Below, piece after piece: positions 1,159 to 2,134 of a stretch of 10,582 nucleotides of DNA; the first letter of the stretch is position 1; each line of letters starts with the position of its first letter. The notes under the pieces were generated by a model. The model worked only from the letters and a program-made list of their open reading frames with translations, made no database searches and was not told where the DNA came from. The stretch is from a virus (taxonomy: Duplodnaviria > Heunggongvirae > Uroviricota > Caudoviricetes), in the IMG/VR virus record IMGVR_UViG_3300012275_000009; one strand, 5' to 3'. The translations under genes were made by a program, and so were the position numbers.

Positions 1159-1811
1159 TGAGTAATAAATATTGCCAGGCGCTGGTGGAACTGCGGAACA
1201 AACCAGCCCATGAACTGAAGGAAGTGGGCGATCAGTGGCGCACGCCGGACAACATTTTCTGGGGAATTAACACCCTGTTTGGCCCGTTTGTTCTGGATCT
1301 GTTCACTGACGGTGATAACGCCAAATGTGCCGCGTATTACACGGCGGAAGATAACGCGCTGGCGCATGACTGGTCAGAACGTCTTGCGGAGCTTAAAGGT
1401 GCTGCCTTTGGTAATCCCCCATACAGCCGCGCCAGTCAGCATGAGGGGCAATACATCACCGGCATGCGTTACATCATGAAACATGCCAGTGCCATGCGTG
1501 ATAAGGGCGGGCGCTATGTTTTCCTGATCAAAGCTGCCACCAGCGAAGTGTGGTGGCCGGAAGATGCGGACCATATTGCTTTTATTCGCGGGCGTATTGG
1601 TTTTGAACTGCCTGCCTGGTTTATCCCGAAGGATGAGAAGCAGGTGCCGACAGGCGCTTTCTTCGCTGGTGCTATTGCTGTTTTCGACAAGACCTGGAAG
1701 GGACCGGCAATCAGCTACATCGGGCGCGATGAACTTGAGGCATGTGGTGAAGCCTTTCTGGTGCAGGTTCGCCAGCAGGCGGAAAAACTGGTCAGGGAGA
1801 TGGCGGCATGA
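1158..1811 (+). CDS. Phage N6-adenine DNA methyltransferase (Dam-like, orphan)
   Basis: ATG at 1158 overlaps the upstream stop (TAATG). The translation has WRTPDNIFWGINTLFGPFVLDLFTDGDNAKCAAYYT and the catalytic NPPY tetrapeptide (AFGNPPYS), the hallmark motif IV of amino-methyltransferases and typical of the phage Dam family. The ORF-track start at 1125 is an upstream in-frame extension with no RBS. Confidence 0.8.
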   Translation: MSNKYCQALVELRNKPAHELKEVGDQWRTPDNIFWGINTLFGPFVLDLFTDGDNAKCAAYYTAEDNALAHDWSERLAELKGAAFGNPPYSRASQHEGQYITGMRYIMKHASAMRDKGGRYVFLIKAATSEVWWPEDADHIAFIRGRIGFELPAWFIPKDEKQVPTGAFFAGAIAVFDKTWKGPAISYIGRDELEACGEAFLVQVRQQAEKLVREMAA

Positions 1812-2134
1812 CGACGTTAACTCAATGCCAGCAGCAGGTGCTGGATATGCTGATTTCTTATCAGAAAGAGCGTGGCTTTCCGCCAACCAATCAGGAGGTG
1901 GCAACCATGCTGGGATACCGTTCAGTGAATGCAGCGGTAGAGCATCTTCGCGCACTGGAGAAAAAAGGCGTCATCACGATAAAGCGTGGCGTGGCCCGGG
2001 GGATAACGCTTCATACCGCGGTGAAGGACGACGACAGCGAGGCGGTCGGGATTATCCGCGCACTGCTTGCCGGTGAGGAAAACGCAAGGCTGCGTGCAAC
2101 CCACTGGTTACATGAGAGGGGCCTGAAAGTATGA
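1808..2134 (+). CDS. LexA N-terminal DNA-binding-domain protein lacking the S24 peptidase domain
   Basis: MTTLTQCQQQVLDMLISYQKERGFPPTNQEVATMLGYRSVNAAVEHLRALEKKGVITIKRGVARGITL aligns by eye nearly residue-for-residue with the E. coli LexA winged-helix domain (LTxRQQEV...GxPPT...LGFRSPNAAEEHLKAL.RKGVIEI..G.SRGIRL). The protein is only 108 aa, with no Ala-Gly cleavage site or Ser/Lys dyad region. The start overlaps the Dam stop (ATGA). Confidence 0.7.
   Translation: MTTLTQCQQQVLDMLISYQKERGFPPTNQEVATMLGYRSVNAAVEHLRALEKKGVITIKRGVARGITLHTAVKDDDSEAVGIIRALLAGEENARLRATHWLHERGLKV

Follow-up and report, generated by a model that had tools for sequence, protein, structure and literature searches.

Autocleavage and dimerization of LexA both need its C-terminal S24 domain, which carries a Ser/Lys dyad. 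Stand-alone proteins of 65-152 aa with a LexA DNA-binding domain (DBD) are common across many phage groups in BFVD. A characterized example is gp6 of the Bacillus thuringiensis tectivirus GIL01, a truncated LexA homologue of 66 aa without a C-terminal extension, which has the strongly diverged recognition helix SHKTAHRYL, binds GaCACAnnTGTGaC, a dyad of its own that overlaps the -35 element of a late promoter, and activates the late promoter P3 (PMC6182141). In addition, LexA-DBD fusions have been reported to bind operator only if the fused module dimerizes them (PMC10521638). Here, we analyzed a gene of this type, referred to as the LexA-like gene (SfV orf42 family, PHROG 362), in a 10,582-nucleotide stretch of DNA from a Caudoviricetes virus (IMG/VR record IMGVR_UViG_3300012275_000009); this whole stretch is called the window below.

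The interpretation that we prefer, tentatively and with slightly less than even confidence, is that the product is a RecA-insensitive regulator derived from LexA, which is made in the delayed-early phase, probably dimerizes through a C-terminal helical hairpin and recognizes a LexA-like dyad with a specificity shifted from the SOS box. The gene is an uncharacterized member of an already catalogued prophage family. What is new here is the conserved and selected tail hairpin, the uniform replacement of Glu44 and Arg28 within the family, and a survey of SOS boxes in which the boxes do not track the gene.

A LexA-type winged helix without the S24 domain

Residues 1-65 of the LexA-like protein fully cover PF01726 (LexA_DNA_bind; E=2.9e-19, 69 bits against a Pfam cutoff of 23.7). 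The best sequence match in the PDB is the Escherichia coli LexA DBD (1lea, E=6e-16), to which HMMER aligned the protein without gaps over residues 2-70 of both, and 35 of 70 positions are identical to E. coli LexA in an ungapped comparison of residues 1-70. We built an AlphaFold2 (AF2) model on a 14-sequence family alignment, with a mean predicted local distance difference test score (pLDDT) of 83. It consists, within the DBD, of helices at residues 6-22, 28-35 and 40-52 and a beta-hairpin wing (56-58/66-68). According to Foldseek, it matches DNA-bound LexA (3jso_B) with a root-mean-square deviation of 0.9 Å over 68 residues at 50% identity. The recognition helix, S39-V-N-A-A-V-E-H-L47, is identical to that of LexA at seven of nine positions. 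Thus, the LexA-type winged helix that the first-pass annotation had placed in the first 70 or so residues is confirmed by profile, alignment and predicted structure, and the strings that it quoted for the recognition-helix region (residues 38-50; RSVNAAVEHLRAL in the LexA-like protein versus RSPNAAEEHLKAL in LexA) are correct.

The protein ends at residue 108. No match to Peptidase_S24 (PF00717) was found in it with Pfam, and only positions 1-91 of 203 in the lexA equivalog TIGR00498 were matched, with a score of 70.5 that is below the cutoff of 110.95. Since a complete RusA gene starts within the stop codon of the LexA-like gene, there is no room for the missing C-terminal domain. The same annotation had noted the stop at 108 aa without an S24 domain, and had concluded that RecA-stimulated self-cleavage is impossible; both statements hold, the second because the autopeptidase domain is absent, a step that rests on established LexA biochemistry.

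Compared with E. coli LexA (1lea, 3jso), the LexA-like protein shares the winged-helix fold and residues S39, N41, A42, E45 and R64-G65-I66, but it has neither the S24 peptidase/dimerization domain with the Ser119/Lys156 dyad nor a conserved Ala-Gly cleavage site. Other differences are the family-wide replacement of Glu44 and Arg28, an extra C-terminal helical hairpin, and the location in a phage early operon instead of an autoregulated SOS gene. As both the S24 domain and the cleavage site are absent, the LexA-like protein is not a LexA orthologue.

Residues 1-108 align end to end with positions 1-106 of 106 in phrog_362 ('transcriptional repressor'; E=1.2e-59), and SfV orf42 is 97.2% identical to the protein. 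SfV orf42, PHROG 362 and the NCBI 'LexA family transcriptional regulator', which is also the RefSeq name for the gene, represent the same family, with the same context between Dam and RusA and no structural difference. Genes that are 96-99% identical were found in approximately 50 phage records, including SfV (orf42), SfII, SfIV, cdtI, mEp460, Ayreon and others as well as 15 Stx2c phages and Stx2a phages. Among 5426 complete E. coli genomes, the nucleotide sequence of the gene is present in 2233 (~41%), with up to four copies per genome. A scan of genome contigs returned mostly genuine host lexA genes. Public names are inconsistent, such as 'SOS-response repressor and protease LexA', 'RecA-mediated autopeptidases' and 'hypothetical protein', and the protease and autopeptidase names are wrong for this protein, as it has no protease domain. 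No functional study of the SfV orf42/PHROG 362 family was found in a literature search, and its annotation is by homology alone.

Such inconsistent annotation, together with the loss of the domain that makes LexA a switch, would fit a functionless remnant, i.e., a truncated lexA or cI-like pseudogene carried in the nin region. We consider this highly improbable. The ratio of nonsynonymous to synonymous substitution rates (dN/dS) is 0.07-0.17 for the whole gene and does not reach 0.4 in either the DBD or the tail, which implies a maintained coding gene. Moreover, 2222 of the 2233 E. coli genomes with the gene contain a full-length open reading frame (ORF), the tail is conserved at ~40% identity across genera, and a Shine-Dalgarno-like motif as well as coupled start and stop codons are present. 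The remnant explanation is already effectively refuted by the selection analysis.

The C-terminal hairpin and its possible role in dimerization

The DBD is followed by an acidic linker (AVKDDD), which is predicted to be disordered, and by a predicted two-helix hairpin (helices at residues ~77-88 and 93-103) that extends to the end of the protein. The acidic DDDSE stretch remarked on earlier is indeed present (D74-D75-D76-S77-E78). In the family as a whole, the linker varies in both length and sequence and is poorly conserved. The hairpin follows the consensus EAVxxIRALLAxExxARxRAxxWLxxxG, with an invariant A97 and a nearly invariant L101, and can be recognized in distant members from different genera. 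Estimates of dN/dS were 0.09-0.36 for the tail and 0.04-0.24 for the DBD. Purifying selection thus acts on the tail, and its two-helix hairpin is conserved.

Two other origins of the tail were considered and rejected. The HMMER alignment placed residues 86-90 (LLAGE) on the VAAGE segment of LexA, which contains the Ala84-Gly85 cleavage site, and the segment might have been a vestige of that site. However, Ala-Gly is not conserved, being replaced by TGG, ERE, TRK, DDQ, ACS or AEE in family members at 40-50% identity; the segment is predicted by AF2 to be helical rather than strand-loop-strand; and the tail, when compared on its own, is not significantly similar to LexA, including the hinge and cleavage region. 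The second possibility was a mobile module shared with other proteins. A search of 5.8 billion proteins with a tail-only profile yielded nothing beyond fragments of the SfV-orf42 family itself.

It is possible that the tail supplies the dimerization for which LexA uses its C-terminal domain. Engineered LexA-DBD fusions, which need to be dimerized in order to bind operator (PMC10521638), make such a role of the hairpin plausible. The LightOff and eLightOn fusions of that study illustrate the same principle, in which a C-terminal dimerizing module makes the DBD functional; they differ in that they are synthetic and their dimerizers are light-switchable, whereas dimerization by the tail is a proposal here.

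Other phage LexA-DBD proteins have the same DBD, and many of them occupy nin-type positions upstream of Q, with different C-terminal parts. The protein of Edwardsiella EPP-1 (72 aa) has no C-terminal module, and that of Proteus vB_BPM-V3 (159 aa) carries a NinF-like Cys motif. In Klebsiella phage Kp4866-6, a protein of ~158 aa (2974-3477), encoded between a methyltransferase gene and those for RusA and KilA-N, has ~90 C-terminal residues that lack any Pfam match and are unrelated to the hairpin. This case shows that the C-terminal module of phage LexA-DBD proteins is exchangeable. Only members of the SfV-orf42 clade have the helical hairpin.

We also observed several proteins outside the enterobacterial family that contain two LexA DBDs in tandem and no S24 domain, such as P0132 (222 aa, 18 contigs), P0148 (352 aa) and P0155 (329 aa), the last of which includes a 6-pyruvoyl-tetrahydropterin-synthase domain as well. 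The presence of two DBDs in a single chain could take the place of dimerization.

DNA-contact residues and the survey of SOS boxes

Ser39, Asn41, Ala42, Glu44 and Glu45 have been listed as DNA-contacting residues of LexA (PMC13416735, PMC3091678). At these positions the LexA-like protein has S, N, A, V and E, so that four of the five are kept and Glu44 is replaced by Val. We set 15 tail-bearing family members against 94 LexA-like sequences, the mean pairwise identity being 0.53 in both sets. Glu is present at position 44 in 74 of the 94 LexA-like sequences and in none of the 15 family members (where the residue is A, V, F, T, L or Y), and Arg at position 28 in 77 of the 94 versus none of the 15. 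On the other hand, S39, N41, E45, H46 and the wing residues R64-G65-I66 are retained in the family. Since Glu44, a DNA-contacting residue, and Arg28 have been uniformly replaced, we infer a specificity that has shifted from CTGT-N8-ACAG.

The recognition helix also varies within the family. It reads NAAVEHL here, NTITGHL in a Citrobacter relative (68% overall identity, with a RusA that is 91% identical) and NAAFEHL in a Kosakonia relative, and the hosts of these variants are all Enterobacteriaceae, which share one SOS box. In the same loci, identity is 43-68% for the LexA-like protein, 66-91% for RusA and 61-88% for DUF968, indicating that the LexA-like gene is diverging fastest. The residue and divergence data argue for a shifted or diversifying specificity.

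A different explanation, raised by the first-pass annotation, is that the protein mimics LexA at canonical SOS boxes. As an uncleavable occupant of host or phage LexA boxes, or by sharing half-sites with LexA, it would restore or prolong SOS gene repression once LexA is destroyed, and would thereby damp SOS functions, the LexA-controlled antirepressors of co-resident prophages, colicins and phage genes with SOS boxes. The DBD is half identical to that of E. coli LexA and keeps most of its contact residues, and the recognition helix is much closer to that of LexA than the helix of gp6 is. However, Glu44 and Arg28, which are kept in 79-82% of equally diverged LexA-like sequences, are lost throughout the family, the recognition helix varies among relatives whose hosts are Enterobacteriaceae, and the window has no SOS box. 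The evidence on SOS-box occupancy thus points in both directions, and we regard this explanation as less likely than the preferred one and as the strongest of the rivals.

Strong SOS boxes do exist in relatives that carry the gene, which is in favor of such mimicry. In SfV, 720R4, mEp460 and cdtI, all of them complete phage genomes with a near-identical protein, the box TACTGTAAAAATAAACAGTG is located 10 bp inside the coding sequence of a late-region methyltransferase (~1053 bp, between Q and holin), and paired SOS boxes are present at dinI in mEp460 and cdtI. The methyltransferase segment was found in 29 of 50,697 phage records, 28 of which also carry a LexA-DBD gene. However, the LexA-like gene and the methyltransferase box are ~4.5 kb apart in one mosaic block, and two phages uncouple them: Citrobacter phage phiNP has a perfect box and no LexA-like gene, and Kp4866-6 has a LexA-DBD variant and a box whose right half-site has decayed. 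Because of these two cases, the co-occurrence in 28 of 29 records is explained by linkage, and a dedicated pairing between gene and box was rejected. The methyltransferase box is more simply a host-LexA site. In the window, the Q-to-holin segment is different and the methyltransferase gene is absent.

As a separate observation, conservation is higher in the ~60 bp upstream of the methyltransferase ATG than in the coding sequence, and this extends to Klebsiella and Citrobacter phages. The methyltransferase gene may accordingly have an unrecognized leader that is LexA-controlled or otherwise regulated.

Several results weigh against the shifted-specificity regulator that we prefer. No perfect CTGT-N8-ACAG is present in the window, and relaxed dyads occur there at chance level, both for CTGT-N8-ACAG with at most one mismatch (5 observed, 3.6 expected) and for TGT-N8-ACA (2 observed, 2.4 expected). 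None of them lies in intergenic DNA, of which there is almost none near the LexA-like gene, and SOS boxes and relaxed dyads in the window were rejected on these grounds. A search of the window for short inverted repeats gave nothing convincing, and no operator candidate was found near PR' or elsewhere. With regard to the tail, amphipathicity of the helices was not significant (fractions of shuffles reaching the observed hydrophobic moment, 0.18 and 0.41). A role for Arg28 in DNA binding by LexA is presumed here. Finally, in the E. coli/Shigella subfamily the recognition helix, with seven of nine residues as in LexA, is far closer to LexA than that of gp6, and canonical SOS boxes may still be bound given this identity.

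The comparison with gp6 is of particular relevance for the proposed regulator. Both are phage-encoded LexA DBDs without a protease, lie in an early operon and would act when host LexA is removed. They differ in the type of phage and the phylum of the host, and activation has been shown for gp6 only. BLASTP gave no alignment between the two proteins at E<=100; in a global alignment, SHKTAHRYL of gp6 faces SVNAAVEHL, with Asn at the position of Lys38 in the gp6 recognition helix. Hence gp6 is the closest characterized analogue and not a member of the family, and, since BLASTP did not align the two, the LexA-like protein represents an independent capture of a proteobacterial LexA head.

Operon context and possible implications for SOS control

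The window is the right-hand early and late region of a lambdoid prophage (Table 1). The nin-like location proposed earlier for the LexA-like gene agrees with its flanks, which encode PerC, Dam, RusA, KilA-N, DUF968/HNH and Q. Downstream of Q, genes for holin, endolysin, Rz, an HNH endonuclease and the small and large terminase subunits follow. For dam, the program-made ORF starts at GTG 1125, and alignment to SfV places the ATG homologous to the SfV start at 1158.

Table 1. Coordinates of features in the window, and of SOS-box sites in related phages where a phage is named.
Feature	Position	Strand	Details
PerC-family protein (YfdN-like)	664..1158	+	
Dam, phage N6-adenine methyltransferase	1158..1811	+	PF05869 E=1e-45; TIGR01712 255 bits
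5' junction of LexA-like gene	1795..1811	+	GGGAG Shine-Dalgarno-like motif 1795-1799, 8 nt before ATG 1808-1810
LexA-like gene (SfV orf42 family, PHROG 362)	1808..2134	+	ATG start, 108 codons and stop
Winged helix-turn-helix, LexA type, residues 1-70	1808..2017	+	AF2 and Foldseek
Acidic linker AVKDDD, residues 71-76	2018..2035	+	predicted disordered; pLDDT <50 at 71-75
Two-helix hairpin, residues 77-108	2036..2131	+	AF2 pLDDT ~88
3' junction, ATGA overlap	2131..2134	+	rusA ATG 2131-2133; LexA-like stop TGA 2132-2134
RusA Holliday-junction resolvase	2131..2520	+	PF05866 E=6e-15; phrog_34
KilA-N protein	2540..3337	+	PF04383
DUF968/HNH protein	3339..4334	+	PF06147/PF16784
Antiterminator Q	4348..5100	+	PF03589
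TACTGTAAAAATAAACAGTG box, SfV	34170-34189		
TACTGTAAAAATAAACAGTG box, mEp460	41021-41040		
TACTGTAAAAATAAACAGTG box, cdtI	44083-44102		
TACTGTAAAAATAAACAGTG box, 720R4	22133-22152		

ATGA overlaps connect the LexA-like gene with both neighbours, its start codon with the stop codon of dam (1809-1811) and its stop codon with the start codon of rusA. No sigma-70-like promoter was predicted directly upstream of the gene, and the weak dam promoter annotated in the SfV record has one extra mismatch in the window; a promoter of its own was therefore rejected. The simplest reading is that the gene would be expressed as a delayed-early gene from PR with translational coupling. No RNA elements or tRNAs were found in the window. 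A defence system was likewise rejected, as PADLOC detected none in the window and gave only the expected methyltransferase matches for Dam and a negligible 18-bit match for the LexA-like protein.

The position next to rusA is well preserved. In eight of nine tail-bearing loci, and likewise in Kp4866-6, the gene abuts or overlaps rusA, and it does so even where protein identity is only 43-52%; such loci include mEp390, Kp4866-6 and those of Citrobacter, Kosakonia and Buttiauxella. SfV, 720R4, mEp460 and cdtI also have the gene in a nin position upstream of rusA and Q. The upstream neighbour varies across loci and may encode Dam, PerC, a replication protein or a cytosine methyltransferase. In Edwardsiella EPP-1 and a Klebsiella ST846 phage the LexA-DBD gene adjoins the DUF968 gene, and the Proteus homologue with the NinF motif adjoins NinG.

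This arrangement raises the possibility that the protein is an accessory of nin-region recombination, in which the winged helix would recruit or position the RusA, DUF968/HNH or NinG-type nucleases, or would regulate them through the tail and not through transcription. Besides the adjacency to rusA, DUF968 and NinG, a protein of 240 aa (P0158) in which a LexA DBD (33-94) is fused to the C-terminal HNH part of DUF968 (112-237) is consistent with such a role. However, adjacency is weak evidence in compact and mosaic nin regions, P0158 is a singleton on one 402-kb ENA contig that may have arisen by deletion as a prophage decayed or may be a true domain swap, and the tail occurs in no other protein context. 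Furthermore, no resolvase is known to require such a partner. An accessory role in recombination thus seems quite unlikely to us.

Several other features of the region were noted. The PerC-family protein matches the MarR-type winged-helix phrog_1687 at residues 8-70, followed by a PerC domain at residues 100-151; together with KilA-N and the LexA-like protein, this brings the putative DNA-binding regulators of the nin block to at least three. Dam-family genes are labelled 'phosphoadenosine phosphosulfate reductase' in several RefSeq phage records, which looks like an annotation error that apparently spread from phrog_33262. The Q-to-holin segment, in place of the methyltransferase gene of the closest relatives, contains an ORF for 80 aa (5389-5631, +) that is Cys-rich and zinc-ribbon-like (CxxC...CxxC...CxxC) and has no Pfam or PADLOC match. 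The GC content falls to 0.34-0.39 at 6500-8000, compared with ~0.55 in the flanks. An ORF for 184 aa (7209-7763, +) between the Rz-type lysis gene and the HNH/terminase genes, also without a Pfam or PADLOC match, looks like a moron or accessory insert. Two masked runs of N, at 331-382 (52 bases) and 6860-6988 (129 bases), fall within the ORF at 230-667 and the Rz-like gene at 6568-7131, respectively; the translations of both contain X, and these genes are only partly assessable.

In the RecA-insensitive regulator that we propose, a LexA winged-helix domain captured from a proteobacterial lexA would have been combined with an acidic flexible linker and the family-specific hairpin. The gene would have no promoter of its own, because none is predicted immediately upstream and ATGA overlaps connect it with the genes for Dam and RusA, and would be transcribed from PR as part of the delayed-early (nin) operon, with translational coupling to its neighbours. 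The protein would then be made in lytic growth or upon induction, when host LexA is cleaved or being cleaved. It would bind a LexA-box-like dyad as a dimer, with the hairpin replacing the C-terminal dimerization domain of LexA, and would repress or activate transcription as a phage-specific factor comparable to GIL01 gp6, not as a straight copy of LexA.

A more far-reaching variant, to which we assign a rather low likelihood, is that the prophage supplies an uncleavable LexA surrogate, which after early expression re-occupies SOS boxes or half-sites beside residual LexA. If this were true, the host SOS program and the LexA-controlled functions of rival prophages and colicin plasmids would be shut down, and SOS output, mutagenesis and the outcome of induction in polylysogens would depend on which prophages a strain carries.

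The SOS response governs prophage induction, Shiga-toxin release, mutagenesis and antibiotic tolerance. The LexA-like gene belongs to the early operon of prophages that are very common in E. coli, pathogenic strains among them, and in Shigella; Stx2c/Stx2a, cdt and Shigella serotype-converting phages are examples. A protein that recognizes SOS or SOS-like boxes would let the phage modify when, or to what extent, SOS genes are expressed, and also how prophages compete. Should the protein have an operator of its own, the family would provide a second, independently evolved case, after GIL01 gp6, of a captured LexA head that serves as a private regulator.

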